From Gammaproteobacteria bacterium (lineage in GTDB: Bacteria > Pseudomonadota > Gammaproteobacteria > Xanthomonadales > SZUA-36), in assembly GCA_030426265.1 (NCBI GenBank), contig JAUHYP010000013.1, forward strand, positions 3,817 through 67,816: a DNA stretch of 64,000 nt. Reading direction: 5' to 3'. How positions within the stretch are numbered: position 1 is the stretch's first letter; every line of letters begins with the position of its first letter. The notes under the pieces were generated by a model. The model was not told where the DNA came from and searched no databases. It was given only the letters and a program-made list of their open reading frames with translations. Both the position numbers and the translations under genes were made by a program. Below, piece after piece: positions 16,458 through 61,437 of this stretch.

Positions 16458-19237
16458 TCGTCCTCCTCCCTGGCGCGCGGCGGCGCCGGTGCGAAATAGC
16501 CCACCACCAGCAGCAGCACCCCGACGCCGATGAAGGAAACGATGCGTTCGATGGTGCCGGAGTTGCCCAGGTCGACCAGGAACAGCTTCAGCACCACCAG
16601 GGCCATGAACCCGGCGCCGATCAGCCACAACTGGCGGTGCGCGCGCCGGGCGCCCAGCACCATGGCCGTAAAGCCCAGCACACCCCAGTAGATGGACAGT
16701 GCGGTCTGGGCCACGACCGAGTCGTACAGGCGATCGAAGTCCCAGGGAACGCCGGCCACGTGATGCACCCCGCGTAGCAGGGCCGCGGTGGTCAGGATGA
16801 AGAAGGCGATGGCCAGGAAGCCCTTGTACACCGGCAGTCCGTCCTGGATTCGGCTGACGGCGACCAGCGAGATGTCACGCCCCAGCACCAGCAGCGACAT
16901 CACCGCCACGACGGCCGCGAACACCGTGGCCAGGTCCAGCGGATTGAGCACCGGGAGGTAGGGCAGGGGCCCCGGGTCACCGGGCAGCGCGATGCTCAAC
17001 ACGCACAGGTGGAGCACCTGTCCCGCCACCAGGAACAGGCTCAGCGCCCGGTAGGTAACCGGGTGCGCCGGAACCGGCCAGGCCGGGCGCTCACGGAATC
17101 GCCAGATGGCCAGCGCGATGATGCCGGGAATGGCGTTGGACGCGGCCTCGGCCCAGGCCCCGGGAACGATAGGGCGTACCTGGTAGCGGACCTCGACGGC
17201 CAGCATGAGGGTGAGCAACAGGGTGGTCCCCACGTGCCATCCGCCGGCCAGGCGGTGCACCCGCTTGTCCATCAGGCGGGTGAGCCATGCCTGGACCGCG
17301 AGCGCCAGCGGCCAGGACAGCCAGCCCGGACCGGAAAGGAAGTGTCGCTCGAAATCGACGGTCTGAAGCGCCATCAGGGCCAGTACCGGCAGCCACAAAA
17401 GGGACAGGTACCGCGCCATGCGCCAGTCCCGGTGTGCGCCAAGCCAGGCCGCCATCGCGGCGGTGGCGGCCAGGAACAGTACGGCGACAGGCAGTTCATG
17501 ATCGCGGGCCAGGCGATCGGAGATTTCCACCATGCCCGTCGCCACCCACCAGGTCACCCCCCAGGCAAACAGGCCCCAGGCCATGACGGCGTAGAAGCGT
17601 CCGACGGGAGGCAGCCGGAAGTCCTCCAGTCGGCGCGCCGCGAACAGTGCCGACAGGCTGATCAGGACGCCATTGAGCACGTTGCCGTTCAGTACGGGCC
17701 AGCCTTCGTCACTGCGCCATCCGTGCAGCAGGAAGGACACACCGCTGAACACGATCAGCGCGGCGCCGGCGAAATTGGCCAGGTGCTGACGCTGCCGCGT
17801 GGCCACCCACACCAGCGCCGCGCCTTCCAGCGCCCAGGCCGTCGCTGTCCAGCGGGCATCCAGCGCCAGCGGGATGGAGATGGTGGCAAAGGCCACGGCC
17901 AGGGCGATGAAGGAATCCCTGAGCACCCGCAGGGTCGCGCCGTGTTTTTGATGCAGCCAGGTGGCCAGCAGGGCATAGAACACCGCCAGGACCGCTGCGC
18001 TGATGGCCAGTCCGTACTCGAAGTCGCGCACCAGCGCGGCCTGCAGCGCGAAGGCGATCACGGGGGTGCCGAACACCAGAGTACCGTCGACCAGGCCGAT
18101 ACGGCTTGGCGGCTGGCGCAGGGCGAACATGATGGCGATGGCCTGGTAGAGCAGGAAATGGATGACCAGGAACGGCTCGGTGCTGGCGAACAGTTCCGGG
18201 CGGTAGTAGCGGTAGCCCCAGAAACTGCCGATCACGAAGGTGAACACGAAGCCGACGAGGTTGACCGAGCGCCAGGCCTGGAACCAGGCCACCGCGAAGA
18301 TCAGCGCATTGAGCACCAGGTAGTAGCTGAACAGCGCGACATGGCTGCCCTCGCCTGTGGAGGTGAGCACCGGCGCGAGAAAGCCGCCGATCGCGCCAAG
18401 CAACACCAGGCCCCGTGCCTTCTGCAACACCGCCAGCGCACCCGAGAAGGCGGCCAGGGCCACCAGCAATGCAAAGGCGAATCCGGCCGGGACCAGCTGC
18501 CAGATCCTGAAGGCCGCGAACAGCGTCAGGAACAGGATGCCGATGCCGCCGCCCTGCAGGCTGATGCCGTATACGCGCATCCGCGTTCGCAGTCGCCAGC
18601 CGATGACGACCAGTGCCACGCCCGCCGCGGCGACCGCCAGGAGGCGGAATTCGATGGGCAGCGTGAACAGCTCGTTGTCGATGGCGTACTTGAGAAAGAA
18701 CGCCACGCCGATGAACGAGAGGATGACACCGACCTTGACCGGCACGTTGCCCGTCGTGAACCAGGCCGTGAGTCGTTGTCCGAGATCGTTGACCGTGGTC
18801 GTGAAGCGTGAGGGGGCCTTCGGGGTGCCGATGGCAGCAGGTTCGCTCACCGACATCGCGGCTGCGGCGCCTGCGATGGGTGGGGGACTGGACGGGGAAG
18901 GGGGCGGGGCCGCCGTTGGACCGGTGGATTCCGGACCTGCACCCGGTGTTTCGGGGCGGACAGGCGGGGCAGGCGAGGCGACGGGCGCGGCAGGAGCCTG
19001 AACGCCCGGATCAACTGGCGCCGTTGACGAATCCGTCGCGGCCGGCACACTCGATACTCCACGCCGAGCCAGGTCATCGAGTGTCGCCTCCAGCGCCCGC
19101 GAACGTCGCTCGAGCAGGACGACCCGGGACACCAGGAAGCCGATCACCGCGCCGCCCAGCGGGCCCAGCAAATAGCCGCCACCGGCCGCAAACGCCAGGC
19201 CGATGAAAAAACCCACCAGGGTCAGGGCAATCGCCAT
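16454..19237 (-). CDS. large polytopic membrane protein, DUF2339-type (family assignment from memory)
   Basis: About 925 aa. An N-terminal TM is followed by a Pro/Ala-rich linker and more than 20 hydrophobic helices. The first ATG is at 19237; the track start at 19243 is TTG. Confidence 0.75.
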   Translation of the reverse strand: MAIALTLVGFFIGLAFAAGGGYLLGPLGGAVIGFLVSRVVLLERRSRALEATLDDLARRGVSSVPAATDSSTAPVDPGVQAPAAPVASPAPPVRPETPGAGPESTGPTAAPPPSPSSPPPIAGAAAAMSVSEPAAIGTPKAPSRFTTTVNDLGQRLTAWFTTGNVPVKVGVILSFIGVAFFLKYAIDNELFTLPIEFRLLAVAAAGVALVVIGWRLRTRMRVYGISLQGGGIGILFLTLFAAFRIWQLVPAGFAFALLVALAAFSGALAVLQKARGLVLLGAIGGFLAPVLTSTGEGSHVALFSYYLVLNALIFAVAWFQAWRSVNLVGFVFTFVIGSFWGYRYYRPELFASTEPFLVIHFLLYQAIAIMFALRQPPSRIGLVDGTLVFGTPVIAFALQAALVRDFEYGLAISAAVLAVFYALLATWLHQKHGATLRVLRDSFIALAVAFATISIPLALDARWTATAWALEGAALVWVATRQRQHLANFAGAALIVFSGVSFLLHGWRSDEGWPVLNGNVLNGVLISLSALFAARRLEDFRLPPVGRFYAVMAWGLFAWGVTWWVATGMVEISDRLARDHELPVAVLFLAATAAMAAWLGAHRDWRMARYLSLLWLPVLALMALQTVDFERHFLSGPGWLSWPLALAVQAWLTRLMDKRVHRLAGGWHVGTTLLLTLMLAVEVRYQVRPIVPGAWAEAASNAIPGIIALAIWRFRERPAWPVPAHPVTYRALSLFLVAGQVLHLCVLSIALPGDPGPLPYLPVLNPLDLATVFAAVVAVMSLLVLGRDISLVAVSRIQDGLPVYKGFLAIAFFILTTAALLRGVHHVAGVPWDFDRLYDSVVAQTALSIYWGVLGFTAMVLGARRAHRQLWLIGAGFMALVVLKLFLVDLGNSGTIERIVSFIGVGVLLLVVGYFAPAPPRAREEDE

Positions 19238-19256
19238 CGGCAAAGTCTAGCGCAAG
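19229..19256 (+). repeat. left copy of the direct repeat bracketing the TIR/caspase island
   Basis: The 15-nt core AAAGTCTAGCGCAAG (19242-19256) is identical to 29610-29624. The 13 nt to its left match 7 of 13 by hand alignment, and a shared ATCGAT lies a few nt to the right. Confidence 0.55.
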
Positions 19257-19314
19257 AATCGATTTTCCAAGGAAATAAGGCGGAATGGGTGGCGTGCCCG
19301 GCATGCTGCGTTGA

Positions 19315-19521
19315 GGCATTGTCGCCGGGTGGGAACTCCTGGATGCACTGTCGCAATGGATCGACGCCTTCGCGGGCGGAGGTGGGATCGACATCGCCGT
19401 GCTGTTCGCCAGCGCCCTGGCCGTGACCATCTACTGCAAGCTGATGGCGAAAACCCTGGCGCCGAAGCACGTCCGGGTGAATGTCGTGACGCTAGCTGGT
19501 TTCAGAATGCCGCCGGCTTGA
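19315..19521 (+). pseudogene. possible remnant of a short-chain dehydrogenase gene
   Basis: This open frame has no start codon and reads GGGGIDIAVLFASALAVTIYCKLMAKTLAPKHVRVNVVTLAGF. It matches the SDR pattern (Y-x3-K, then A-K-x2-A-x3-[IV]-R-V-N-x4-G) seen in the intact SDRs of this window. Both ends are truncated and the segment overlaps the 3' end of the TIR gene. Confidence 0.3.
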
Positions 19522-21460
19522 GGTTTCGCGAATGCCAGACCATGCCGTTCTCGTCGGTGCCCTGGTAGTAGTCGCCGACCCGCCTGTGAAAGGGAATTCG
19601 GATGTTGAGCGGTTCACCTGATGTTACGACCAGTCCGCTCAATTGAACGCCGAGGTGAATCGGGTTTGTCTGGTGGTCTCCGGCATCGAGCAAGGGATAC
19701 CCGCTTCCGTGAATCTGTTGCGCTGATTTGCCCGGAAGGATCAACTGCCCGTCGAATTGCTGATCGGAGGCCAGTTGGAACTGTAGTTCGATCACTCCAT
19801 GGAGGCTCGCCGCCCGTGCTTCCCAGTGGCCCTCGTACCGGACCTCCTGAACTCCTTCGTCATTGACCTGGCGGGCCGGTACGAATCGGGGTAAGTGTGA
19901 AGTGTCCGCCTTGCTGCTCAGGTCTTCCCCGGTCGCAAGTCGCTGCTCGATACTCTCAAGGTCTTGCTGGGTTTTGCGCGAGGAGGCGGCCTCCCTCTCC
20001 AAAAGGTCGACGAGGTCCTGGACCAGGTAGGGAAATTCAGACCTGAACCGGCTTTCGTTCAATCCAACAGCGTGCAGTGTGGTCAGCCGCTTCAGGGAGC
20101 TGGGAAGTTCTTCAATCGCGGGCATATCGGCGCCATTCAGAAGTACCGGAAGGATCGCACGGAAACTCTCGAAGGCGGTTTCCACCTCCCTGCGGACCAC
20201 GTCCTGGACGGTCATTATCCCGCCATTGCGAGTCCAGTCCTTATCGATCAGGACCAGTACCACGTTTGCCCGGCGTATTTCGTCGCGAATCGCTTGGGTC
20301 CAGTCCGTTGCTGCTACGTTGTCCGCCACGTCCTGGAACACCTTCATGCGGGGAAAACGCAGCTCCAGTTCGCGTTTGATCTGTCCCGCCAGCGTCGAGG
20401 CGCCGGAGCGGCGGTAGGACAGGACAATGCGTGTCTCGCGCTGGCGGACATAGGCATCCTGTTGCAGAGGTTGCATCCATGGCCTCGCGGCGGGCTCGAA
20501 CTCGTCTGCCAGGTCGGGAGCGGTCGAACTATAGTCACCTGGCGCCAACCCCTGGCTGAGCATGAGAGCGGTGGCAATCCGCGCCAGCTGGCCGTACTCC
20601 TCGAAACCGGTCGCTTCGGGATGCGTGGCATTCCGCGACAGGGTGACGTAGGCCTCCAGGGCCGAGGGGAAGGCACAGAGTTTGCAGAGATCCCGCAACA
20701 GATTCGACCGCAGGCTGGGCCTGTGCGGGTCCAGGTGAATGCCGAACAGGTTTTCACGCAGGGAATCTGTATGTCGACCCATCTTGCTGTACACCACCGC
20801 CAGGGTGCCACGAAAGTAGGCGTCGTAGGGATTGAGCTGTTTGAGGCCTTCAAATCCCTCTCGCGCCGAGTCGATGTCGCCGCGCTTTAGCGCCTGAAAG
20901 TGTTCTTCCGCCCTGTCGTAGGCTTGTTCCATGGTCACGCGTTCCACCACGGACCGCGCCTCGCCGTCGACCAGGAGACTGGCCAGTTCCCGTTCCGCAT
21001 CGTCGAAGAGTCGACTGAGGCCCGATCCGGCCAGGTCGGCGTACAGGCGCAGCGCTCGTTCGGTATCGGCCCGTTGATCGGGTCTGGCGATTCGCATGTG
21101 CGTCACCAGGCCATTGCCAAGGACATCCGGAAGCTGGTCTGCACAGTCAGCGTAGGACCAGGCATCGATGGGATCCAGCTGTTCAAACCGGGCATTGGTG
21201 AATGCATTGAGCGCTCGCATCGACCGGACCAGTGCGATCTGTGTGAACTGGACTTCGAGCGCGGCCGGTCGATCACCGAAGCGCTGCAGGAAGGTTGCTA
21301 TCGCGTTGCTGGCGGCGGTGAGTGATTTCGCGTCCAGTGCGAGGGGACGGGTGCACCCCAGCAGCTCCTGTTCGTCGCCAGGAAGCAACGCCTGTCCACA
21401 GTGCCGACAGAAGGCGCTGTCGTCAGGATTGTCGCCCTGGCATTGCGTGCACTGCGTCAT
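19502..21460 (-). CDS. zinc-ribbon / TPR-like / TIR-domain protein with unknown C-terminal domain
   Basis: Start MTQCTQCQGDNPDDSAFCRHCGQ (CxxC...CxxC zinc ribbon). Helical TPR-like middle region. The TIR domain lies at about 19997-20434 (RIVLSYRRSGAS ... VVLVLIDKDW ... REVETAF). About 135 aa of unassigned beta-rich C-terminus follow. Confidence 0.8.
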   Translation of the reverse strand: MTQCTQCQGDNPDDSAFCRHCGQALLPGDEQELLGCTRPLALDAKSLTAASNAIATFLQRFGDRPAALEVQFTQIALVRSMRALNAFTNARFEQLDPIDAWSYADCADQLPDVLGNGLVTHMRIARPDQRADTERALRLYADLAGSGLSRLFDDAERELASLLVDGEARSVVERVTMEQAYDRAEEHFQALKRGDIDSAREGFEGLKQLNPYDAYFRGTLAVVYSKMGRHTDSLRENLFGIHLDPHRPSLRSNLLRDLCKLCAFPSALEAYVTLSRNATHPEATGFEEYGQLARIATALMLSQGLAPGDYSSTAPDLADEFEPAARPWMQPLQQDAYVRQRETRIVLSYRRSGASTLAGQIKRELELRFPRMKVFQDVADNVAATDWTQAIRDEIRRANVVLVLIDKDWTRNGGIMTVQDVVRREVETAFESFRAILPVLLNGADMPAIEELPSSLKRLTTLHAVGLNESRFRSEFPYLVQDLVDLLEREAASSRKTQQDLESIEQRLATGEDLSSKADTSHLPRFVPARQVNDEGVQEVRYEGHWEARAASLHGVIELQFQLASDQQFDGQLILPGKSAQQIHGSGYPLLDAGDHQTNPIHLGVQLSGLVVTSGEPLNIRIPFHRRVGDYYQGTDENGMVWHSRNLKPAAF

Positions 21461-21501
21461 GATCGTTCCGATCCAATCGTCTACCCGAACAGGAGGGACC
21501 C

Positions 21502-22482
21502 TCAGATCCGCCCCTTCTGAACCAGCCGCCGGTAGTGCTCGCCCAGCTCCGTCAGCCTGCACGCTGTGCGCTCCATCGCGGCATGCCACATGTTGGCCTT
21601 CGAGGCGCCCACGGGGACGACCAGGTTCAGGCGGTTCATTTTCTGCAACAACAGGAACCTGGCGACGTTTTCCGGGTCGGGAGGCGGCGCGTCCGGTTCG
21701 CGGCCGGCCATTTCCGGTTCGAAGCTCGGGTCCAGCGCGAACTCGCTGCCGGGTTCGGGGAAGAATTTCAGGATCTTGCGCAGCTCAGCGAGCTCGATCG
21801 GCGGCGGGACGTTTCTCAGCGACACGAACTTCTTGATATTGGTCCGGAACAGCGGGCGCTGCTCGAAGCCGCCCAGTGATTCGTCGATGTGCGCGTAGAC
21901 GCTGCCGGGCGATATGGCGCCCAGCAGATTCGCGGCGCTGCCTTTCAGGGCATCCACGAACAGGGTCGTGAACACTCCGCGCCCGTCCTTTTCACTCGCA
22001 TACTGCTCCGCGGTGGATGCGGTGAGCACTGTCAGGCCTTCGGACAGGACCACGAGGTCCTTGTGCAGGGGCGCGGCGCCCGCGATGCCGGAGTGGCAGC
22101 TGTCCAGGATGACGAGCTTGTTCCGGGCCGGTGAAAGGTTGGCGTAGGTCAGGACGTCGTTGAGCGAGAGCCCTTCGTCGCCCCGGCTCGAGTCCGAGGT
22201 CAGCAGGTAGCCGCCCGTCGCCTCGATGTGCCCATGGCCGGCGAAGTAGAACAGGGCCACGTCCGCGTCGATGGAGAACACTTCCTTGACGGCGTCGCGC
22301 AGCTGCCTCCGTCCGAGGCCGCTGGCAGCGTCCTTCGCCAGGAACGGCTTGCAATCGAAGTTGCGGGAACCATCACCGTTCCGACCCAGGACATCGAGCA
22401 CGGCACGGGCATCCTCGACGCACCCGAACAAGGGCCGCCCGTGTTGGTAGTAATTGATTCCGACAACCAGCGCGACGCGCAT
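21502..22482 (-). CDS. caspase-like (Peptidase_C14 / orthocaspase-type) protease with unknown C-terminal domain
   Basis: MRVALVVGINYY start. The catalytic His sits in FYFAGHGH (codon 22234-22236) and the Cys in ILDSCHSG (22096-22098). About 115 aa of unassigned C-terminus follow. An alternative GTG start lies at 22491. Confidence 0.85.
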   Translation of the reverse strand: MRVALVVGINYYQHGRPLFGCVEDARAVLDVLGRNGDGSRNFDCKPFLAKDAASGLGRRQLRDAVKEVFSIDADVALFYFAGHGHIEATGGYLLTSDSSRGDEGLSLNDVLTYANLSPARNKLVILDSCHSGIAGAAPLHKDLVVLSEGLTVLTASTAEQYASEKDGRGVFTTLFVDALKGSAANLLGAISPGSVYAHIDESLGGFEQRPLFRTNIKKFVSLRNVPPPIELAELRKILKFFPEPGSEFALDPSFEPEMAGREPDAPPPDPENVARFLLLQKMNRLNLVVPVGASKANMWHAAMERTACRLTELGEHYRRLVQKGRI

Positions 22483-22653
22483 TTCGTCCACTCACGATCG
22501 AATTGTCTATAAATGTAGCAAGTGCGGAGCATCTTGCTCGTGCGCGCAGGTCTTTGTTTTTCAAAGCGACAGGGCGCAGACTATGGGCAGGCCGGTGGGT
22601 GGTTGGTGCTATTCGCCGGACACGCCGCACGCTGTACGGAACGAGGCGCCCTT
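22483..22653. promoter_or_regulatory. divergent control region between the two TIR/caspase operons
   Basis: About 170 bp, locally AT-richer. It holds a TATAAA element at 22508-22513 and an inverted repeat AGCAAG-N10-CTTGCT at 22517-22538. No promoter could be called confidently. Confidence 0.3.
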
Positions 22654-25554
22654 GTGAATGACATCCACATACCCGGCTACGAAATCCTCAAGCAGTTGGG
22701 GATCGGGGGCATGGCCAGGGTGTACAAGGCGCGCCAGTTGTCGCTGGAGCGGGAAGTCGCCATCAAGGTCTTGCGGGCCGATCTCGGGGACGACGTCGAG
22801 TCCTTCAAGAGGCGGTTTTTCAACGAGGGCAGGATCCTCGCCAGCATCACGCACCCCAACATTGTCGCCGTCTACGACCTCGGCGAGGCGGGGGACGCGC
22901 TCTACATCGCCATGGAGCTCGTGCCCGGGGACACCCTCGAGGAGATGGTCCGCAGGGACGGCGTGACGCTGGAACAGGCCATCGGAATCTGCCGGAAGAT
23001 TGCAGGCGCCCTGGATCGGGCGCACGCCAAGGGCGTGATTCACCGCGACATCAAGCCCTCGAACATCCTCATGGAAGACCTGGACACGCCGAAGCTGGTC
23101 GATTTCGGCATCGCCCGGGGTCGCCAGGCCGATGTCGGCATGACCCAGGAAGGCGTCATGCTCGGCACGCCGTTGTACATGAGTCCGGAGCAGGTCCAGG
23201 GCGTCGCCATCGACGAGCGTACGGACATCTATGCGTTGGGCGTCACGCTGTACTGGCTCCTGGCGGGCCGCCATCCTTTCGAGGGGGACGCCGCGCTCGG
23301 CATCGCACTCAAGCACCTGCATGATCCGATCCCCGAACTTCCCGAAGCGGTGGCCGGACTGCAGGCCATCGTCGAGCGCGCGATGGCCAAGGACCCGGCA
23401 GATCGTTTCCAGAGCGCCAGGGAGTTTGCCGATGCCCTCGACGCGGTGGAACTCGATGGTCCGCCGCTCCATCTCGGTGTTCCGACCGCCGATCCGGCGG
23501 GACCCACGCTCGGTCGCACCCAGCCGGCTTACCCGACCCTCGAGGTGCCCCGCAGGGGCGCCTCGCCCGCGACGAAACGCGGTGGTTGGCTCAGCGCCAT
23601 CCTCGGCTGGTTCGGGAAGTCAGACGACGGGGGTGAAGCCGGAACGACCGGGCGCGCATCCGCTCAAGCTCCCGCGGCGCCGGACCCGCAGGCGCAGACC
23701 CACCCACAGATGCCCTCCGTCTCCGGTTCCGAAAAGGGTGCAACGCCGGCCCCCACGCCGGCCCCCTGGCAGGAGTCCACGGGCGCCGCCACCATCCTGA
23801 GTCCCATCACGCCGCCCGCCGAACCCGAATCCCCACCCACCCTCCCCGGGGAACTGGCGCCGCCGTCGGGTGATGACACGCAGTTCCTGGTTCCCGGCGA
23901 GGCCGGCACGGAGCAGGGGCTGGTCGTCAGCCTCGCCGTGACGAGCTCGCCTGACCCATCGTTCGTGGGCACCCGGGTCCAGTGCCAGTCGTTCCCGTTC
24001 CGGATTGGCAGGGGCGGAGAGGCCGATCTGAAAATCGAGCGCGACAGCGCCATCTCCCGGAACCATGCCGAGATCTTCAAGATCGGCTCGGGGTATTACC
24101 TCAAGGACACCAGCGCCAACGGCATCGTGGTCAACGGACAGCTGGGCAAGGACCAGTCCGTGCCCCTGCCGTTCAACAGCTCGATCCAGCTCTCCGATTC
24201 GACGACGCTGACGTTCCAGCCCCACCTCGAACTGCTGCCGGACCTGACGGGCCAGCGCATCGGCGACCGTTTCGACGTCGAGAAAGCCCTCCACCACAGC
24301 ATCAAGGCCTCCACCTACCGCTGCCGGGACCTCGACATGCCGCGCACCGTGGTGGTCAAGCTGTTCTCCCCGCACCTCATGTCCCTGGAGCAGTTCCGGG
24401 ACGAATTCGAACGGCAGGCGAGGCTGACCATGAAGTTCACTTCGCCGCACATCGTCAAGGTGCTCGAGTTCAAGGAGTTCCCGATCCCGCAGATCGCCGC
24501 CGGCAAGCCGGTTTCCTACGTGTGCACCGAGTACATGGAAGGCGGCAGCCTGGCCCGGCGCATGGATGACGAGGACTTTCCGGAAGCGGAACAGGCGCTG
24601 AACTGGGTGGTCGTGCTGGCGCGCGCGTTGGACCATGCTCACCGGCGCGGTGTCGTGCATGGCGACCTCAAGCCCAGCTGCATCGTGTTCGATGCCGACG
24701 GCGCGCCCTACGTCACGGATTTCGCCATGGCGGTGACGGAAGGGGAGGGCAAGGACAGCGCCCGGACCGGCACGCCGGCCTTCTGGGCGCCGGAACAGTG
24801 GGACCGCCAGGCGGCGACCGAGCGCACGGACCAGTACAGCCTGGCCGTGCTGGCCTACTTCATGCTCTCCGGCGCCCGGCCCTTCGAAGGCCAGTCGCAG
24901 CCCCGGATTCGCGAGCGAAACTTCCGCCGCGGCCCCGAGCCGGTGCACGAGGTGGCCGAGCGACGGCGCGGACTGGCGCTCAACAGCAACCTGTCCCAGG
25001 TTCTGGCGCGGGGCATGAGCGTCGACCCGGAAGCGCGCTACGAGTCCGTGACCGCCTTCGCCACCGCCCTGTCCCAGGCAGCGCACACGGCCGAGCAGCG
25101 CCGCAGCACCCCGCGCGTGTTCATCAGTTACCGGCGCAAGGCCAACGCGGGTTGGGCGAACCTCTTTGATTACAACCTCAGGAACCAGTTCGGGTTCGAG
25201 GTGTTCATCGATGCGCGCGCGGTGGACGGTTCGCCGCAGATCCCGACCCGGGTGCGGAACGAAATCGATCGTTGCGATGTCTTCGTCTGCCTGCTCCACC
25301 CCGAGACACTGGAGTCGGACTGGGTGCGGGCGGAGATCAAGCTGGCGCACGAGGCCCGCAAACCCATGGTTCCGGTGTTCTCGGAACACTTCCAGCCCGG
25401 CGCCTACAAGGAGGCGGCGGCCGAAATCCAGGCCCTGCTGGACCACGAGGCCGTCATCTTGCTCGACCAGAAGAACGTCTACCTGGATGCGGCCCTCAAG
25501 ATGCTGGCCGACCAGGTGCAAAAGCTCGTGGGGCCGAGCGGTCGCGTGCACTGA
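22654..25554 (+). CDS. Ser/Thr kinase - FHA - kinase-like (possibly pseudokinase) - TIR fusion protein
   Basis: - Kinase 1 (about 22678-23445): GIGGMARVY loop, VAIK Lys 22765-22767, HRD Asp 23047-23049, DFG, SPE.
- Pro-rich linker.
- FHA (about 23950-24225): FRIGRG, SRNHA, ANG.
- Second kinase-like domain (about 24250-25075): no Gly-rich loop, HGD at 24658-24666, DFA instead of DFG.
- C-terminal TIR (about 25111-25530): RVFISYRR ... SDWVRAEI.
- The start is inferred as GTG 22654 (GAGG upstream); the track start at 22522 is an upstream GTG. Confidence 0.85.
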   Translation: MNDIHIPGYEILKQLGIGGMARVYKARQLSLEREVAIKVLRADLGDDVESFKRRFFNEGRILASITHPNIVAVYDLGEAGDALYIAMELVPGDTLEEMVRRDGVTLEQAIGICRKIAGALDRAHAKGVIHRDIKPSNILMEDLDTPKLVDFGIARGRQADVGMTQEGVMLGTPLYMSPEQVQGVAIDERTDIYALGVTLYWLLAGRHPFEGDAALGIALKHLHDPIPELPEAVAGLQAIVERAMAKDPADRFQSAREFADALDAVELDGPPLHLGVPTADPAGPTLGRTQPAYPTLEVPRRGASPATKRGGWLSAILGWFGKSDDGGEAGTTGRASAQAPAAPDPQAQTHPQMPSVSGSEKGATPAPTPAPWQESTGAATILSPITPPAEPESPPTLPGELAPPSGDDTQFLVPGEAGTEQGLVVSLAVTSSPDPSFVGTRVQCQSFPFRIGRGGEADLKIERDSAISRNHAEIFKIGSGYYLKDTSANGIVVNGQLGKDQSVPLPFNSSIQLSDSTTLTFQPHLELLPDLTGQRIGDRFDVEKALHHSIKASTYRCRDLDMPRTVVVKLFSPHLMSLEQFRDEFERQARLTMKFTSPHIVKVLEFKEFPIPQIAAGKPVSYVCTEYMEGGSLARRMDDEDFPEAEQALNWVVVLARALDHAHRRGVVHGDLKPSCIVFDADGAPYVTDFAMAVTEGEGKDSARTGTPAFWAPEQWDRQAATERTDQYSLAVLAYFMLSGARPFEGQSQPRIRERNFRRGPEPVHEVAERRRGLALNSNLSQVLARGMSVDPEARYESVTAFATALSQAAHTAEQRRSTPRVFISYRRKANAGWANLFDYNLRNQFGFEVFIDARAVDGSPQIPTRVRNEIDRCDVFVCLLHPETLESDWVRAEIKLAHEARKPMVPVFSEHFQPGAYKEAAAEIQALLDHEAVILLDQKNVYLDAALKMLADQVQKLVGPSGRVH

Positions 25555-25688
25555 ACGCCTGGCGGGTGCGGCGCAGGGCGAGGCAGGGGCCTGCCCGAAC
25601 CAGCGAATTTCCCGGCGCTGTCCTATAGTCGAATTCATGCGGATCATTTCAATGATTCGTTGTCGACACGGAAGGAGGTCAGAGGGAA

Positions 25689-27533
25689 GTGGCCAGGAAA
25701 GCGGCCATCGTGATCGGGGTGAACACCACGGGTGGCCTCACCCCGTTGCGCTCGGCGGCGCGCTGCGCCGACGAGGTGGCGGAGTGGCTCGAGGCGGAGG
25801 GCTATGACGTCGCCTGCCTGACGGACGCGGACGAACCGGTCACCACCGGCCGCGTCACCGACGCCATGGACCGGTTCGTGACCGTGCCGCCGCGCTATGC
25901 GCAACTGGTGGTGTACTTCACCGGACACGGGTACTGGCACGCCCGGGCCGACATCTGGCTGCTCAGCAAGGCGCCGGTCCGGACGGAAGAAGCCATCAAC
26001 CTCGAGGGCGCCATCGACCTGGCCCGCTATTCGGGCATCCGCAACGTCATCTTCATCTCGGACGCCTGCCGGTCCCTGCCCGACGTACGGTCCGGCGCGC
26101 TGGTCCAGGGCATCGACGCTTTTCCCAACTTCGCCGACATCACGACCCAGTCGAAGATCGACGTGTTCCGCGCCACCAGTGACGCCCAGGCGGCCTACGA
26201 GGCGGAGGTGGACGGCCAGCCCACCAGCCTGCTGACGCACGCGCTGCGTGCGGCCTTCCGCGAACCCGAGCCCGACATGCTGCGGGACGTGGGCGGTCAG
26301 CAGGTCGTCCCGAACCGGCGGCTCGAGAAGTACCTGCAGCGCAAGATCGACACCACCCTGGGGGCCATCGACCTCAACCTGCGCCAGCGCATCGAGGTCA
26401 ACGTCCCCTCGGATGACGACATCTACATCGCGACCGCCGCCGTCGCCCCGAGCCGACCGCCACCCGGCGAAGTCGTGCATCGTGGTGCGGGCGACGACTT
26501 TGGGATGGACGACCTTCCCATGACTTCGGGTGCGGAGCCGGCATCCCCGGAACCGGAGCCCCCGAAATCGGTGCCTCCCGCAGAGGCCGTTCCCCCCGCG
26601 CCTTCGGTGCTCGGGGACATCCGCGGCAACCTGGATCGCGTGTTCTCCGAGCCCATGGGCATGTCCGACTCCGCCACGATCAATTTCACGATGGACATGA
26701 CGGAGACCGTCGACCGCCTGTCCGGACTCATGCCCCGACCGGACGTGGCGGATCACTTCGAATCCCATTGCGGGTTCACGATTTCCGGCGCCCGGATCGA
26801 GGAGGCCATCTGCGGCGGCGCCGCGGACGGGGTCTTCATCGAACGGTTGTACGAGGGCGATGGCGCGGACCAGCCGGCCGTGGTCCGCCTGTGGGACGCC
26901 GCCCCCGGCGCGACCGTGTTGCTGCGCACGGACGACGGTCGCGTCCTGGTGCTGGCCGGCTTGCCCGATTTCATCGGGCACGCGACGGTCGGCGAAGCCG
27001 GCCTGAAGAACGTGAGCTACATCCCGTCGTCCAATGCCGGCGAGCTCTACGATTTCTACCGGGAAAAGCAGGAGCGCATCGATCGCTTCCGCGCCCTGGT
27101 CGCCCTGGCGGCCAACGAAAACGAGTTCCGGCTGGAATCCGATGACGCGGCCATCCGGCTGGCGGACGAGATCCGGATGGTCAAGGCCCTGGATCCCACG
27201 CTGGGACTGTACGCCGCCCATGCCTACGCCCAGGCCAGCAAGGTGGAAAAGGTGGCCAGTGTCGCCGACGCCATGCGCCACGACCTGCACATCGACCTGT
27301 TCGACCTGGTCGTATTGACCTCGCGCCGTGGCGATCCCTGGCCGGACCGCCCGGTCATGCCGTTCTGCCCGCTGCTCACGCAAACCTGGAACCTGCTCCG
27401 GCCCCGCGGAATCGAGCTGCATCCCGCGCTGGCGGAAGCGTCCGCCTACCTGCGCAACGCCCTGTGGACGACCTTCGAGGCCGAGGCCTGGGATCCGCTC
27501 CGCGCGGCGATGGAATTGGGAGAGTTGAGATGA
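25689..27533 (+). CDS. caspase-like protease domain with a ~400-aa unknown C-terminal region
   Basis: GTG start with AGGAGG SD. KAAIVIGVN is followed by His in VVYFTGHG (25926-25928) and Cys in FISDACRS (26067-26069). A Pro-rich linker leads into an unassigned C-terminal region. Confidence 0.8.
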   Translation: MARKAAIVIGVNTTGGLTPLRSAARCADEVAEWLEAEGYDVACLTDADEPVTTGRVTDAMDRFVTVPPRYAQLVVYFTGHGYWHARADIWLLSKAPVRTEEAINLEGAIDLARYSGIRNVIFISDACRSLPDVRSGALVQGIDAFPNFADITTQSKIDVFRATSDAQAAYEAEVDGQPTSLLTHALRAAFREPEPDMLRDVGGQQVVPNRRLEKYLQRKIDTTLGAIDLNLRQRIEVNVPSDDDIYIATAAVAPSRPPPGEVVHRGAGDDFGMDDLPMTSGAEPASPEPEPPKSVPPAEAVPPAPSVLGDIRGNLDRVFSEPMGMSDSATINFTMDMTETVDRLSGLMPRPDVADHFESHCGFTISGARIEEAICGGAADGVFIERLYEGDGADQPAVVRLWDAAPGATVLLRTDDGRVLVLAGLPDFIGHATVGEAGLKNVSYIPSSNAGELYDFYREKQERIDRFRALVALAANENEFRLESDDAAIRLADEIRMVKALDPTLGLYAAHAYAQASKVEKVASVADAMRHDLHIDLFDLVVLTSRRGDPWPDRPVMPFCPLLTQTWNLLRPRGIELHPALAEASAYLRNALWTTFEAEAWDPLRAAMELGELR

Positions 27534-28405
27534 GAATCCTGTTCATTCACGGACGCGCCCAGGGTGGCAAGGACCCGGTCGCCCTGGCGAAACTCTGGAA
27601 CGACACCCTGAAGCTGGGCTTGGAATCGGCCACGGAGGCCCTGCCGGACGGGGTCGGGGTGGACTTTCCCTATTACGGCGATGCGCTGGACGACTTCACC
27701 GCGCGCGCCGATCTGCCGTCCCCGGACGAGGTGGTCGCCAAGGGGCCGGGCCAGGACGCCGGCTTCGAATCGTTCATGCAGAGCGCCCTGGACGAGATGT
27801 ACCAGAAATCCAGCCTCACCGAGGACCAGGTGGAAGCCGAGATGACCACCGGCCAGGTGCAGGAGAAGGGCCCGCAGAACTGGGGCTGGGTGCAGGCCAT
27901 CGCCCGGGCCCTGGACAAGCATGTCACGGGAGCGGCGGACTGGACCATCGACCGATTCCTGAAGGACGTGTACCTGTACGTCAACATCCCGACCGTCACC
28001 CGCGGCATCAACGCCATCGTCGAGGACATGATCACGGATGAGCCGACCGTGGTGGTCGGCCATTCCCTGGGCACCGTGGTGGGCTACAAGGTCATCCAGG
28101 AGAACCAGGGCAGGCTCAACGCCTGCAAGTACATCACCCTGGGCTCACCCCTGGGCATTCGCGCCATCAGTTCGAAACTGGGCCTCCCGGAAAACCTCGC
28201 CAAACAGGGCTGGTACAACGCCTACGACGACGGCGACGTGGTGGCCCTGAACCCGCTGGATGACCGGTATTTCCCGACCGACCCGGAAATCGTGAACAAC
28301 AACGGCGTCCACAATTTCACGGACAACCAGCACGGCATCGCCGGCTACCTGAACGACGCCAGGGTGGCGGCGGAGATCGTCAAGGCGGTGCGCGGTCACC
28401 CTTAG
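27530..28405 (+). CDS. alpha/beta-fold hydrolase (lipase/esterase-like)
   Basis: ATGA overlap with the upstream stop (27530-27533). MRILFIHGRAQGG start. The nucleophile elbow is VVVGHSLGT (Ser codon 28064-28066). There is no signal peptide. Confidence 0.75.
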   Translation: MRILFIHGRAQGGKDPVALAKLWNDTLKLGLESATEALPDGVGVDFPYYGDALDDFTARADLPSPDEVVAKGPGQDAGFESFMQSALDEMYQKSSLTEDQVEAEMTTGQVQEKGPQNWGWVQAIARALDKHVTGAADWTIDRFLKDVYLYVNIPTVTRGINAIVEDMITDEPTVVVGHSLGTVVGYKVIQENQGRLNACKYITLGSPLGIRAISSKLGLPENLAKQGWYNAYDDGDVVALNPLDDRYFPTDPEIVNNNGVHNFTDNQHGIAGYLNDARVAAEIVKAVRGHP

Positions 28406-28432
28406 TCCCGGTCGATTCCGGCTGTCGGGCGA

Positions 28433-29551
28433 TCAGTCCTGGTCGGATTCAGTGATGCGAATGTCGCGGAGCAGTCGCTCCAGGGCACGCTCATAGCTCG
28501 TGGCGTCCTGCCAGTTCGAGAAATCACCGATCTGCCGCGCGTTGCGAATGTCCGAACTCCAACCTGATTCCACATCGAGAATCGAGTCGTCGAGCCGGAT
28601 CGGCAGGAGGACGCCGATCTTCAGTTTGGTTTCCTTGCGAAAAGCGGTTTCGACTTCCTTTTCGATCCACGGGCTCTCAAAGGAATTCGCGGACAGCACG
28701 AGCAGCAGGTGATCGTGTTGCCCGATGGCTTCGTCGATGCGGTTGCGAATACGGTCGCCGATTCTCATGTCTTCCGGAGCGAACCAGCAGCGAACCCCTG
28801 CGGCCTGCAGGTCCCCGTACAGCTTCCGGACGAAGGCTTCGTCACGTTGGTTGTAACTGATGAAACAGGAGCGGTATTTCTGAAGCTGGGCGACCTCTTC
28901 GGTATACAGCGCGATCACCCTGTCCGGCATGCCGCAACCTCGCAGAAATTCCGGAACGGCATGCCCCATCCAGCGAACGGTGTCGTGATCCAGGGAACTG
29001 GGGCCGAGATGAACCGTGTCGTCGAGTCCGGTCGCTTCGCGAAAGTCGGTCCGACCGAAGACGGTATCCAGGAAACTCGCCCGGCCAAGCGCCGCGCGAT
29101 AGAAATTGGTTTTGCGAAGGTCTGCGCCCGCCAGGTTGCTCCCGGTCATGGTTGCGCGAACCAGGCGGGCCCTGCGCAGGCAGGCCTGGCTGAGATCTGA
29201 ATCGATGAGATAGGCGCGCTCCAGGTTCGCGCCGCTGAGGTCTGCCTGGTACAGGGTCGCGTGATCGAGCGTCGCCTTGCTCAGGTCAGCCCCTCCGAGA
29301 TTGGCCTTGACCAGCCGTGCGCCCGTCAGGTTCGCGCCACAGAGGTTCGCGTAGGTCAGGTTGGCATGGCCCAGATCCGAGCCGGAAAGATCGGTGCCCA
29401 GGAGCATCGCGTCCTGCAGGTCGATGTGACCCAGGTCCTTTCCAGCCAGGTTGGCGCCGGACAGGTTGGCGTCTTCCCCTCGGCGCTGTTTCCACTCGTT
29501 CCATGCGAGAACGCCGGCTTCGAGCTTGCGCAACTGCTTGGGGTTCGCCAT
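28433..29551 (-). CDS. pentapeptide-repeat - TIR-domain protein
   Basis: ATG at 29551 (MANPKQLRKLE). About 28 pentapeptide units (ANLSGANLAGKDLGHIDLQDAMLLGTDLSG...) span about 29053-29473. The C-terminal TIR lies at about 28570-28870 (SCFISYNQRD ... LLLVLSANSFESPWIEKEVETAF). Confidence 0.85.
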   Translation of the reverse strand: MANPKQLRKLEAGVLAWNEWKQRRGEDANLSGANLAGKDLGHIDLQDAMLLGTDLSGSDLGHANLTYANLCGANLTGARLVKANLGGADLSKATLDHATLYQADLSGANLERAYLIDSDLSQACLRRARLVRATMTGSNLAGADLRKTNFYRAALGRASFLDTVFGRTDFREATGLDDTVHLGPSSLDHDTVRWMGHAVPEFLRGCGMPDRVIALYTEEVAQLQKYRSCFISYNQRDEAFVRKLYGDLQAAGVRCWFAPEDMRIGDRIRNRIDEAIGQHDHLLLVLSANSFESPWIEKEVETAFRKETKLKIGVLLPIRLDDSILDVESGWSSDIRNARQIGDFSNWQDATSYERALERLLRDIRITESDQD

Positions 29552-29596
29552 GCGGTCGTTTCCTTTGACCTCGATCCCGGCCGAGGGATCCAGTCC

Positions 29597-29624
29597 GATC
29601 ACCACCAAAAAAGTCTAGCGCAAG
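29597..29624 (+). repeat. right copy of the direct repeat bracketing the TIR/caspase island
   Basis: The core AAAGTCTAGCGCAAG at 29610-29624 is identical to 19242-19256. A perfect 7-bp inverted repeat CGAACGG-N5-CCGTTCG follows at 29636-29654. Confidence 0.55.
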
Positions 29625-29724
29625 TTGTTATCGATCGAACGGATCACCCGTTCGTGGGGGCGCGGTCGGGCGAACTTCGAATGGCGAGGGCGTCTCCGGG
29701 AACCTAAGCTTTGGTCATCATCCT

Positions 29725-30246
29725 ATGATGCCATCCGGTGATGCCAACATGAGCCACGCACGTCCGATCCCTTCAGAGGTCCGCTACCGCGACCCGGCCT
29801 TCGAGCAGGCACTGGGGAGTCTTGGTGGCCCCGTGAAGGGGCAGGGCGCCACGGTCTGGCTGTTTACCGGGATGCCGGGCGCGTTCCTGCGCAAGGAAGC
29901 CCAGTCCGTGGCGGCCCGGCTGGGCAAGCGCCTGGTCACGGTCGACCTGAAACCCGCCGGCAGCCGCTACATCGGCGAAACGGAAAAGAACCTGTCCCGC
30001 ATGTTCGGCGAGGCCAGCCGCTCCGGCTGGATCCTGTTCTTCGACGAGGCCGACGCCCTGTTCGGCAAGCGCAGCAACGTCCAGGACGCCCACGACCGAT
30101 ATGCCAACCAGGAAGTCAGCTACCTGCTGCAATCCATCGAGGCGCACCAGGGCCTGGTCATCCTGGCGACCAACCATCCTTCCGCGGCGAAACCGGCGTT
30201 CAAGTCCAGCCGGACGCGGAGCATGGTGGTGAAGTTTCCGCCTTAG
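29725..30246 (+). CDS. truncated/degenerate classical-clade AAA+ ATPase module
   Basis: The core is strongly AAA-like: SRYIGETEKNLSRMFGEA, Walker B ILFFDEADALFGKR (30031-30054) and DRYANQEVSYLLQ. The Walker A position reads GMPGAFLRKEA (29869-29895) instead of GxxGxGK[ST]. The protein is only 173 aa. Confidence 0.7.
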   Translation: MMPSGDANMSHARPIPSEVRYRDPAFEQALGSLGGPVKGQGATVWLFTGMPGAFLRKEAQSVAARLGKRLVTVDLKPAGSRYIGETEKNLSRMFGEASRSGWILFFDEADALFGKRSNVQDAHDRYANQEVSYLLQSIEAHQGLVILATNHPSAAKPAFKSSRTRSMVVKFPP

Positions 30247-40455: not shown

Positions 40456-41808
40456 TCAGGTGGACAGTTTCGCGATGTCCTCGCGCACGCTGCGGGCCGC
40501 GATCACGTAGTGCACGCAGGCCCAGACCGCCGCGATGACGCCGACCGTCAGCATGGCCTTGCCGAGCGGCCCTTCAACGCCGGAACGGGACAGGTGATCG
40601 CTCAGCATCCCGACACTGGTCGGGCCGAGCCCCATGCCGATGAGGTTGATGGCAAAGAACAGGATCGCCGACGTGAGCGCCCGCATCCGCAGGCCGACGA
40701 GGTTGTGCGAAACCGCCAGCACCGCGCCGAGATAGGCGGCGGTCAGGAAGTTGAGCGGGCCGACGAGCACCAGCCCCAAGACCATGGAATCGGTGCCGAG
40801 AATGGTGACCATGACCGGAATGGCGAGGGCCGTCAGCATGGCTGGCGCCCACAGGTACCAGCGCGCGTCCCGGGCGCCCAGGCGATCTGCGATCCAGCCA
40901 CCGAAGAAAGAGCCGAGCCCTCCGCCGAAACCCGTGGTCAGCGCCATCCAGGTACCTAGATGGCCGATGCCGATGTCGTGGGTGCGCAGAAAATAGGAAG
41001 GCAACCAGTTGCCGATCGCGTAAATGATGAAGGCCTGCAGGCTCGCCGCTATCGCGATGTGCCGAAAGGAGTTGCGCGACCACAGCAGCCGCGCCACTTC
41101 CATCAACGGCGGTGCTGGCGTCGCCTGCTGTGCCCGGCCTTCGGACCAACCGCGTTGCGGTTCGCGCACCGTCATCCGCAGCAGGATGGCCAACAGCACC
41201 CCCGGCGCGCCGACCACGAAAAAGGCCAGTCGCCAGCCAAAGTACTCCGTGATCCAGCCGCCAAGCAGGTAGCCGCCCAGGATCCCGATATAGATGCCGA
41301 CGGAGTAGATCGACAGGGCTGTCGCGCGGTGCTTGCGGTCGAAGATGTCGGAGATCATGGAGTGGGCCGGCGGGCTGCCACCGGCTTCACCGACACCGAC
41401 ACCCACCCGGGCCAGCAGGAGTTGGGTGTAGTTCTGCGCCAGCCCGCTGATGGCGGTCATGACGCTCCAGACCGTCAGGGCGAGCGCGATGATGCTGCGT
41501 CGTACGCCCTTGTCCGCCCACCGTGCGATCGGAATGCCGCAAACGACATAGAACAACGCGAAGGCGAAGCCGGTGAGCAGCCCGAGTTGCGTGTCCGAGA
41601 GACCGAGTTCGGCCTTGATGGGCTCCTGGAGAATGACCAGCAACTGCCGGTCGATGAAATTGAAGGCGTACACCACGACCAGTATCGCCAGCACGTAGTA
41701 GCGATAGAGGGCGGATTCGTAAGGTGTGGTCTCCGGTGCGGCGCCAGCGATTGCGTCGTTGGCGCGGTCCGTCGTACCGGCGTCCCCGGATTCGGTCGTT
41801 TCGCTCAT
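40456..41808 (-). CDS. MFS transporter
   Basis: ATG at 41808 (MSETTESGDAG). About 12 TM helices and a loop 2-3 motif GIPIARWADKGVRR. The track start at 41898 is TTG. Confidence 0.85.
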   Translation of the reverse strand: MSETTESGDAGTTDRANDAIAGAAPETTPYESALYRYYVLAILVVVYAFNFIDRQLLVILQEPIKAELGLSDTQLGLLTGFAFALFYVVCGIPIARWADKGVRRSIIALALTVWSVMTAISGLAQNYTQLLLARVGVGVGEAGGSPPAHSMISDIFDRKHRATALSIYSVGIYIGILGGYLLGGWITEYFGWRLAFFVVGAPGVLLAILLRMTVREPQRGWSEGRAQQATPAPPLMEVARLLWSRNSFRHIAIAASLQAFIIYAIGNWLPSYFLRTHDIGIGHLGTWMALTTGFGGGLGSFFGGWIADRLGARDARWYLWAPAMLTALAIPVMVTILGTDSMVLGLVLVGPLNFLTAAYLGAVLAVSHNLVGLRMRALTSAILFFAINLIGMGLGPTSVGMLSDHLSRSGVEGPLGKAMLTVGVIAAVWACVHYVIAARSVREDIAKLST

Positions 41809-58493: not shown

Positions 58494-58533
58494 GTCTCGA
58501 TGATCAATTTGGGTAGAAATGAAGTGCTATTTC

Positions 58534-61261: not shown

Positions 61262-61305
61262 AGAGCGTAGTACCAAAGGCGCCTGCTGTGTCGTGCAGCA
61301 TCTGA

Positions 61306-61431: not shown

Positions 61432-61437
61432 GACGGA

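Follow-up and report, generated by a model that had tools for sequence, protein, structure and literature searches.

The 64-kb stretch of DNA analyzed here, referred to throughout as the window (64,000 nucleotides of contig JAUHYP010000013.1, positions 3,817 to 67,816 of the forward strand, from a gammaproteobacterium of the SZUA-36 lineage), carries a 10.4-kb block of six genes, A to F, enclosed by a short direct repeat, and this block is a composite defense island and not one unnamed system. We read it, with a confidence only slightly better than even, as a variant type IV Thoeris system, in which the TIR protein C, and perhaps the TIR protein A, would provide the signal and the caspase-like protease B would execute, accompanied by an autonomous caspase-hydrolase cassette, D-E, and a solitary TIR gene, F. 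The observations that bear on this reading are the identities and family memberships of the genes, the conservation of their catalytic residues, the statistics of their neighborhoods in other genomes, the repeat boundaries, and the heterogeneity of codon usage. The genes of the block are as follows.

19502 to 21460, minus strand: gene A, 652 residues, with a zinc ribbon (residues 4-25) and a TIR_2 domain (residues 345-448, Pfam E 3e-9)
21502 to 22482, minus strand: gene B, a 326-residue ThsE-family caspase-like protease, Peptidase_C14 (Pfam E 4e-16), His83/Cys129
22483 to 22653: intergenic region of 171 bp between the divergent genes B and C, presumed site of both promoters
22654 to 25554, plus strand: gene C, 966 residues, with Pkinase (E 3.5e-79, two stretches), FHA (E 1e-11), and TIR_2 (E 5.5e-14) matches in Pfam
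25689 to 27533, plus strand: gene D, a 614-residue caspase-like protease, Peptidase_C14 at residues 3-195 (E 3e-9), followed by about 400 residues without a Pfam domain
27530 to 28405, plus strand: gene E, a 291-residue alpha/beta hydrolase with an HG oxyanion motif, a GHSLG elbow containing Ser179, Asp236, and His268
28433 to 29551, minus strand: gene F, 372 residues, with Pentapeptide (E 5e-34) and TIR_2 (E 1.5e-25) matches, convergent with E

A first-pass annotation had described the locus, counted as seven consecutive genes, as an immune or conflict island of TIR, caspase-like, and hydrolase proteins, and all seven open reading frames are present with the coordinates and strands that it gave. 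Pfam bears out the folds, with TIR_2 in A, C, and F and Peptidase_C14 in B and D, and the codons named as catalytic all translate as claimed (Glu425 in A, Glu894 in C, Glu299 in F, His83/Cys129 in B, His80/Cys127 in D, and Ser179 in E), in keeping with an island of catalytically intact proteins. The gaps are 41 bp between A and B, 134 bp between C and D, and 27 bp between the convergent genes E and F, and the coupling of D to E through a 4-bp ATGA overlap is real. The same annotation held that no named system has this composition, and this does not stand, as B is a ThsE-family caspase and a caspase with an adjoining TIR falls within the operational definition of type IV Thoeris.

Judged by its sequence, B is a ThsE, that is, a member of the type IV Thoeris effector family. 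Its homologs number 6248, and, B's match to itself aside, the best 120 are 64 to 69% identical to it and 323 to 327 residues long save for one of 375 residues, with the best-matching homologs spread over Chloroflexota, Bacteroidota, Planctomycetota, Nitrospirota, Pseudomonadota, and other phyla. At 65 to 69% identity, B matches the approximately 324-residue proteins of thsB-thsE operons over 100% of its length, and a 123-residue ThsB_TIR gene lies directly upstream of the B homolog in all five of the neighborhoods that were opened (P0074, P0020, P0064, P0016, and P0002). These neighboring ThsBs share 66 to 70% identity with PsTIR, which belongs to the type IV system validated by experiment in Pseudomonas sp. 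1-7 and whose domain sequence was taken for comparison from Table S1 of Yirmiya et al. (bioRxiv 10.64898/2025.12.03.692087). B retains every invariant column in an alignment of 15 family members, including the C-terminal ones at residues 228-319, and in a neighbor-joining tree B and its nearest relative, P0002, are together sister to the canonical ThsE clade.

In type IV Thoeris, infection leads the TIR protein to make N7-cyclic ADP-ribose (N7-cADPR), upon which the caspase-like protease degrades cellular proteins, including EF-Tu (Rousset et al., bioRxiv 10.1101/2024.10.24.620036). The C129A mutation of PsCaspase abolishes defense (Rousset et al., bioRxiv 10.1101/2024.10.24.620036; Science 2025), and Cys129 of B occupies the same position as the residue mutated there. 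The C-terminal domain of ThsE was proposed by Rousset et al. to bind the signal, and the conserved C-terminal domain of B (residues ~215-326) is by analogy presumed to be the N7-cADPR sensor; no solved ThsE structure on which ligand-binding residues could be mapped was found by sequence. The MacSyFinder rule by which Rousset et al. detect type IV systems asks for the caspase profile and, no more than one gene from it, a profile for TIR_2 or ThsB, and A (TIR_2 E 3e-9) lies 41 bp downstream of B while C (TIR_2 E 5.5e-14) is its divergent neighbor, so that by the published rule the locus would be called type IV Thoeris. Effectors of Thoeris types I-III and V-XI (SIR2-SLOG, Macro-TM, SLOG, DUF2270, SLATT, CMP hydrolase, HIT hydrolase, ion channel, and others) are absent from the seven proteins as searched with PADLOC, Pfam, and NCBIfam.

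A separate observation concerns the canonical relatives of B. Eight loci (L001-L008) carry a canonical type IV pair with an identical ThsE (P0074) at the same position in a conserved element containing ParB, DUF932, DUF2958, RPA, and ParA, an apparent integrative conjugative element; P0074 is found in 250 blocks of the collection index and was first listed on 121 contigs, illustrating how type IV Thoeris spreads.

The divergent neighbor C is our candidate for the signal-producing TIR for B. Its first kinase domain keeps the VAIK, HRD, and DFG motifs and has the look of an active Hanks Ser/Thr kinase, and its C-terminal TIR carries Glu894. In a 20-member alignment of the family, the motifs of this first kinase, the FHA domain, and the TIR Glu are all conserved, the last invariantly, and the consensus of the second kinase at the HRD position is HGG. 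The kinase-FHA-kinase-like-TIR layout that had been assigned to C is correct with the refinement that the second kinase appears to be a pseudokinase; the window copy has a degenerate glycine loop, HGD for HRD, and DFA for DFG. When residues 540-966 were used as query in an exhaustive HMMER search, more than 100 clusters (at 50% identity) proved to share this second kinase and TIR at the C-terminus of proteins of 860 to 1340 residues. The PD-T4-6 models of PADLOC match C up to E 4.8e-143, solely by way of the generic Hanks kinase domain at residues 5-267, and do not include its FHA-pseudokinase-TIR remainder. Three further scans yielded kinases only: a two-sequence alignment scan of metagenomes for C-like loci gave the distant kinase L099, a scan of viral contigs gave generic kinases, none of them matching the TIR, and tblastn against plasmids likewise returned kinases.

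The closest relative of the window's core was found on one JGI (Joint Genome Institute) metagenome contig and one Logan-assembled contig (L017/L018), where a 951-residue protein is 68% identical to C over its full length and, as in the window, is divergent from a ThsE-like caspase (335 residues, 60% identical to B). In this locus the caspase is followed by genes resembling D (~60% identical) and E (72%) and by a 396-residue gene containing an HExxH motif, gene X, and the divergent B-C unit is inverted relative to D-E when compared with the window. The ThsE-like gene of L017 is also without a thsB. No conserved regulatory DNA was apparent: the B-C intergenic region could not be aligned with its L017 equivalent, nor could the region upstream of D be aligned between loci; within the window's B-C region a consensus scan found no sigma-70-like promoter and there is one terminator-like hairpin (22533-22550), both scans being at chance level.

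The second module, D-E, is an autonomous two-gene cassette. A scan of species-representative genomes gave 80 loci from at least 11 phyla, and in 75 of these D is immediately followed by an E-like sequence; of the five exceptions, three stop at a contig edge. The 80 are drawn from at least 150 tblastn-confirmed stretches, and 77 D-E loci are non-redundant. When all neighboring open reading frames were clustered, no genes besides D and E proved to be conserved. Some 90% of the 77 non-redundant loci are free of TIR and ThsE genes within 5 kb, and three further close relatives (L182, L183, and L184) likewise have no TIR nearby. The 4-bp overlap of D and E recurs in L014, L016, L017, L182, L183, and L184. 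The cassette can be described as an approximately 590-residue caspase protein with the tail motifs DPTLGLYAAHAY, CPxLTQxWN, and LWTTF, followed directly by a hydrolase of approximately 290 residues that has the HG and GHSLG motifs, Asp, and His, and the window copies of D and E keep all of the invariants. We regard D-E as a candidate for a new protease-lipase defense or cell-suicide system.

The AlphaFold2 model of D (predicted local distance difference test score, pLDDT, 86.6) comprises the caspase domain with His80/Cys127, a disordered Pro-rich linker (residues ~255-300) that contains Arg, a beta-sandwich (362-446), and a helical domain (451-609). There are approximately 130 full-length homologs of D, and His80 and Cys127 are invariant across the 32 homologs aligned. 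The top Foldseek matches of D are the MALT1 paracaspase (caspase-Ig3), GSU0716, and metacaspases. The C-terminal region, for which structure prediction had been proposed at the first reading of the window, does give a confident model when taken alone (pLDDT 85.2), and this model has no match in the PDB below E 0.001 and in particular none to a known nucleotide-binding fold; the beta-sandwich and helical domain are presumably regulatory. Homology of the D tail to the ThsE sensor domain was considered and ruled out by profile-profile comparison, which aligns the caspase domains only.

In the case of E, the residues Ser179, Asp236, and His268 are invariant across 24 homologs. The single sequence gives a weak Abhydrolase_6 match in Pfam, and 21 of the 24 family members match generic alpha/beta-hydrolase models. 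A more specific family for E was sought, and the matches (Abhydrolase_6, PGAP1, Lipase_3, and LCAT) were all generic; a sequence profile search found no significant relative in the PDB, and PADLOC and NCBIfam contain no family for E. PADLOC placed neither D nor E in any family beyond a weak generic caspase match. In plasmid records the homologs of D are labeled merely "caspase family protein."

The upstream neighbors of D-E were scanned for an enrichment of defense genes, and defense-like genes proved to be a minority among them: six caspases, three TIR_2 genes, two Hachiman HamB genes, IetA, subtilases, and DO-GTPase2. Several side observations concern individual loci. A gene X of about 400 residues, without a Pfam match and carrying an HEYAHT or HEYSHT motif suggestive of a metallopeptidase, follows D-E in L016 (12683-13888), L017 (12662-13852), L022, and L023; it is missing from the window, where F sits at this place on the opposite strand. 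Other proteases lie within about 1.2 kb downstream of D-E, namely a 981-residue CHAT protein in L182 (10864-13809) and a Peptidase_S8 subtilase in L184 (9764-11248), and L184 has an additional alpha/beta hydrolase gene just upstream of D. In L072 a full IetA-like gene adjoins D-E. The rhizobial D homologs P0237 and P0240 have N-terminal extensions resembling twin-arginine or other secretion signals, for example MKRRQFLSATAALSAF, and on this account some members of the D family may be exported.

A minority of D-E cassettes are linked to TIR or ThsE genes: ThsE-like caspases and TIR genes adjoin the cassette at no fewer than five independent loci, and one or the other lies within 5 kb in at least seven loci beyond L017/L018. 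Besides the window, ThsE-like caspases are found within 5 kb of D-E in L014/L015, L017/L018, L026, and L076, lying directly upstream in the first three and near in L076, and TIR genes are found within the same distance in L014, L017, L021, L022, L026, L073, and L076. The order of genes is thsB, thsE, D, E in L014/L015, preceded by a TIR_2 gene in L014 only, and it is the same in the alphaproteobacterial genome of L026. In the acidobacterium of L076, a TIR-WD40 gene is directly upstream of D-E on the same strand with a 65-bp gap, and downstream on the opposite strand there are a ThsE-like caspase fragment, a 156-residue open reading frame, and a 481-residue TIR protein (L076 3773-6826 and 9674-11914) whose TIR is 47% identical to that of the extra TIR_2 gene of L014. 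In L022, from Caldimonas, the gene for a 324-residue A-like TIR protein, with a TIR 34% identical to that of A, shares the strand of D-E-X and precedes it by 40 bp. Together with the window, where C precedes D by 134 bp, L022 and L076 make three loci in which a large TIR-fusion gene lies directly before D on the same strand. The linked loci fall in at least three lineages of D, and five of the 11 members of the window's D subclade are TIR-linked. ThsE lies within 5 kb of D-E in four of the 77 independent loci, in addition to the window, and with type IV Thoeris found in only hundreds of approximately 38,000 genomes (Rousset et al.), this is, as an order-of-magnitude estimate and not a formal test, far above chance. 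Such linkage is compatible with defense-island clustering or with functional coupling. A side observation comes from the contig of B's nearest relative (L101), where thsB-thsE is followed at 1689-1799, at the contig end, by the N-terminal 37 residues of a hydrolase resembling E, MEIVFVHGRSQQLKDP; here the E-like gene tentatively comes directly after thsE, apparently without a D between them.

This linkage is the ground on which the first rival explanation has to be weighed, namely an integrated TIR network in which the signal or signals of C, A, or F control both proteases, an explanation that we consider unlikely. D-E would then be a hitherto unrecognized effector arm of TIR immunity, working through a sensor in the D tail or through a caspase cascade, and this we likewise doubt. 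In one form of the network, the C-terminal domain of D would be a second-messenger sensor and D-E a new Thoeris-type two-enzyme effector pair, and in the other, signal-activated ThsE would act as an initiator that cleaves the linker of D, whereupon D, as executioner, would activate the hydrolase E; in either form, kinase/FHA-fused TIRs, C among them, would connect phosphorylation-based sensing with TIR signaling. The positions of the ThsE-like caspases and of the large TIR fusions ahead of D, the E-like N-terminus after thsE in L101, and the recurrence of TIR/ThsE linkage in separate D lineages are all in its favor, as are the confidently modeled C-terminal domain of D, to which no function is assigned, and the disordered, Arg-containing linker that precedes it. 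However, with about 90% of the loci lacking both TIR and ThsE nearby, D-E must work without them in most genomes, the D tail is related neither to the ThsE sensor domain nor to any known nucleotide-binding fold, and the gaps upstream of D, which range from 134 to 395 bp, permit independent transcription.

A variant type IV Thoeris system must in turn account for the missing ThsB. No canonical thsB is present in the 64-kb window, where tblastn with four ThsB sequences gave only weak matches to the TIRs of A and C, and an EcTIR-like protein is absent from it as well. A remnant of thsB upstream of B was also looked for by tblastn and not found, and the idea that the A, C, and F TIRs are directly akin to canonical ThsB was likewise set aside, the matches being marginal. 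A non-canonical TIR partner for B is nevertheless plausible, since Table S1 of Yirmiya et al. has caspase-associated TIRs spanning at least four TIR clusters and the same paper reports rare islands with many ThsB genes and several effectors. Besides C, gene A is a candidate for such a partner, as a second sensor-TIR co-transcribed with B. The A protein is laid out as a zinc ribbon, a TPR-like helical region, a SARM1-type TIR (residues ~340-470), and a beta-rich C-terminal domain, and in the alignment with TIR-1/SARM1, which are among its PDB sequence matches, its Glu425 falls on the catalytic Glu of their WVHKE motif. The zinc ribbon and TIR assigned to A at the outset are confirmed, and the TPR-like part drew a weaker signal, to designed consensus-TPR chains in the PDB (E 1e-5).

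The alternative for the missing thsB is that B is an orphaned effector, which lost thsB on rearrangement and is now silent or decaying, with A, C, and F acting as stand-alone NAD-depleting TIRs. The thsB that precedes all the other close ThsEs examined is indeed missing here, the TIRs of the window are unlike the validated type IV TIRs, and many bacterial TIR fusions are NADase effectors, which Yirmiya et al. excluded from their Thoeris set. B nonetheless has no signs of decay: its invariant residues are all kept, and its G+C content at third codon positions (GC3), 0.85, matches that of the host genes. Moreover, the ThsE-like gene of L017 has been retained beside the C ortholog despite having no thsB, and ThsE pairs with several unrelated TIR clusters in the data of Yirmiya et al., and we find it decidedly improbable that B is an orphan.

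The mechanism that we infer for the island, covering which TIR feeds B, what the signal is, and the defense role and trigger of D-E, is as follows. The kinase, FHA, and pseudokinase modules of C would sense or gate the trigger, upon which its TIR would make the signal, and A, as a zinc-ribbon/TPR sensor-TIR, may make signal too, paralleling multi-ThsB Thoeris loci with wider phage recognition. The TIR-made ADP-ribose derivative, N7-cADPR by analogy with PsCaspase, would bind the C-terminal domain of B and switch it on, and active B would cleave cellular proteins indiscriminately and thereby abort the infection. D-E would be a protease-hydrolase cell-suicide or defense module with its own trigger, in which a hydrolase of the lipase or esterase type is translationally coupled to D, and which has been captured repeatedly beside TIR/ThsE modules. 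F would be an independent NADase or signal generator.

The boundaries and codon usage of the block bear on its origin, and the features concerned are listed here.

19242 to 19256: left copy of the direct repeat, 15 nucleotides, exact, AAAGTCTAGCGCAAG, with an imperfect extension over 19223-19256
29610 to 29624: right copy of the direct repeat, AAAGTCTAGCGCAAG, with the extension 29591-29624, 58 nucleotides upstream of the start codon of F
29725 to 30246, plus strand: gene G, a 173-residue AAA+ fragment, IetA-like, outside the repeat-bounded block

The direct repeat brackets A to F exactly. Its left copy overlaps the 5' end and leader of a DUF2339 membrane-protein gene and the right copy duplicates that region, which points to insertion of the A-F block at the DUF2339 site; the two extended copies are identical at 26 of 34 positions, and the exact 15-mer occurs twice in the 64-kb window, where 0.07 occurrences would be expected by chance. 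Neither tRNA genes in the window nor an integrase in the block were seen. Within the block, GC3 is 0.70 in A and 0.75 in F, as opposed to 0.85-0.88 in B, C, D, E, and G and in the flanking genes. L017 has no counterpart of A, and L014, L016, and L017 have none of F. The lower GC3 of A and F indicates that they are of different or more recent origin, and, taken with their absence from L017, it suggests that they were added to a B-C-D-E core. A is a near-orphan, with one full-length homolog (P0241, 31% identical) among 5.8 billion proteins. F, with Glu299 in an S-x-W-x3-E motif and a TIR of the PdTIR/AbTIR/TcpB type as seen in its PDB sequence matches, gave PADLOC matches (PDC-S66, ThsB, and similar) restricted to its TIR domain, and is probably a solitary TIR gene, acting as an independent NADase or signal generator.

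The first-pass annotation had taken the seven genes (A to F, whether or not G is counted) for one obligate system without a named relative. The genes are contiguous, their catalytic residues are intact, and the repeat brackets A to F as one block; yet B belongs to a named, experimentally characterized system, D-E is self-contained, A is nearly without relatives, and A and F stand apart in codon usage and are absent from the related locus. The proposal that homologs might co-occur elsewhere holds for C, B, D, and E, in a different order and with the different gene X, and the seven-gene set as such is never seen again, which leaves the single obligate machine very unlikely.

The flanks had been described as ordinary membrane-protein genes, and the right flank departs from this in beginning with the truncated AAA ATPase remnant G. 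Pfam AAA matches G over profile positions 15-123 of 131, and PADLOC IetA (E 1.5e-14) and NCBIfam IteA (E 7.6e-14) match it over about 110 of about 370 profile positions. In G another residue stands in for the Walker A lysine (GMPGAFLR), whereas Walker B is retained; the lid domain is missing. The gene that follows is a LytTR membrane protein and not an IetS-like protease, such that G falls short of a full IetAS system and is probably the remnant of another defense gene at the same hot spot. Elsewhere in the window, the stretches 41000-44000 and 57000-62000 have a GC content of ~0.60-0.61 compared with ~0.65-0.68 for the remainder, and could be other acquired regions.

A number of findings weigh against the reading of the island as a variant type IV Thoeris with an autonomous D-E and a solitary F. 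The TIRs of the window are only about 30% identical to PsTIR over 29 to 53 residues, as against 66 to 70% for canonical ThsBs, and none of the three resembles the validated type IV TIRs. The pairing of C with ThsE rests on two loci. The one full-length homolog of A, P0241, is on a 2.5-kb contig whose flanks, with 230 bp on the upstream side, contain no visible remnant of a caspase. The direct repeat is short and the block that it bounds lacks an integrase. Where D-E is concerned, TIR-to-D coupling fits the three loci with a TIR-fusion gene directly upstream of D better than mere co-location does, the upstream neighbors of the cassette are mostly ordinary metabolic or housekeeping genes, and its defense role is deduced solely from domain content and co-location, PADLOC contributing a weak generic caspase match. 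It is least probable of all that the block, or at least D-E, is not anti-phage and serves regulated cell death, development, stress, or interbacterial conflict, for which the ordinary metabolic surroundings of most D-E loci, the signal-like extensions of the rhizobial homologs P0237 and P0240, and the occurrence of caspase, TIR, kinase, and FHA combinations in conflict systems of multicellular bacteria that resemble apoptosis (Kaur et al., PMC8195603) can be cited, but which is opposed by the experimental anti-phage activity of ThsE/ThsB operons (bioRxiv 10.1101/2024.10.24.620036), by D-E neighbors such as Hachiman HamB, IetA, subtilase, CHAT, and DO-GTPase in several loci, and by a patchy, cross-phylum distribution of D-E that is typical of mobile defense genes.

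Type IV Thoeris and multi-TIR islands are already published, and what is unexplored is kinase/FHA-TIRs as possible ThsB equivalents, the D-E cassette with its novel domain, and the recurrent association of D-E and ThsE. Should C or A turn out to feed ThsE, type IV Thoeris could extend beyond short ThsBs to large kinase/FHA- or TPR-fused TIRs, phosphorylation-based sensing would be linked to bacterial TIR second-messenger immunity, and a function would be at hand for more than 100 uncharacterized kinase-TIR protein clusters. D-E, in turn, spans at least 11 phyla, carries no annotation other than "caspase family protein / hypothetical protein," and includes a confidently modeled domain without a known fold, and its repeated capture beside ThsE makes multi-step bacterial caspase cascades directly testable. 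Annotation of the window at the level of domains would read "novel" or "PD-T4-6 plus Thoeris," and both would be misleading.

The comparator closest to B is canonical type IV Thoeris, with which the window shares a caspase of the same length, with the His/Cys dyad including Cys129 and the conserved C-terminal domain, as well as adjoining TIR genes that carry the Glu. It differs in having no 123-residue PsTIR-type ThsB, its TIRs being part of large multidomain proteins, and in the order of its genes, in which the caspase comes first with the TIR downstream or divergent, whereas in canonical systems the TIR is followed by the caspase. The islands with several ThsBs of Yirmiya et al. (bioRxiv 10.64898/2025.12.03.692087) resemble the window in clustering TIRs with more than one putative effector and in having one effector family served by several TIR clusters, but no kinase-fused TIR is listed there, the word "kinase" being absent from the main text and from the tables as covered, Table S1 in part; among the effectors it names, the sole caspase entry found is "Caspase - Type IV" and the hydrolases are CMP and HIT, while E is an alpha/beta hydrolase. 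For the individual TIRs, the best sequence matches among solved structures are SARM1 and TIR-1 for A and PdTIR, AbTIR, and TcpB for F, each with the catalytic Glu aligned, although these matches are distant (E 1e-5 to 1e-9) and the N-terminal partner domains differ.

In the case of D, the nearest structural counterparts are MALT1, the metacaspases, and the bacterial orthocaspase-like GSU0716, which share with it the caspase-hemoglobinase fold and the His/Cys dyad, but which are 10 to 18% identical to D, whose tail, searched on its own, has no significant PDB match and which is coupled to a hydrolase gene. Some MALT1 caspase-Ig3 chains align with D over ~470 columns at a root-mean-square deviation of ~23 Å, so that the beta-sandwich of D is at best an Ig3-like counterpart in another orientation. 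In bacterial immunity, caspase-like proteases encoded next to gasdermins and the phospholipase CapV of CBASS (cyclic-oligonucleotide-based anti-phage signaling system) are examples of protease- or signal-activated lytic effectors. D-E resembles these in joining a regulated protease or signal to an adjacent executioner directed at membranes or lipids, and differs from them in having no gasdermin or patatin domain, E being a generic hydrolase. Finally, the operon in which Pycsar is combined with type IV Thoeris (Liu-DS6; PMC13069673) is like the window in that type IV is joined to a second, independently functional module, with the difference that the partner there is Pycsar, composed of a cyclase and a transmembrane effector, and the partner in the window is the caspase-hydrolase pair, and Liu-DS6 is a precedent in which modules encoded side by side act in synergy and do not cross-activate.

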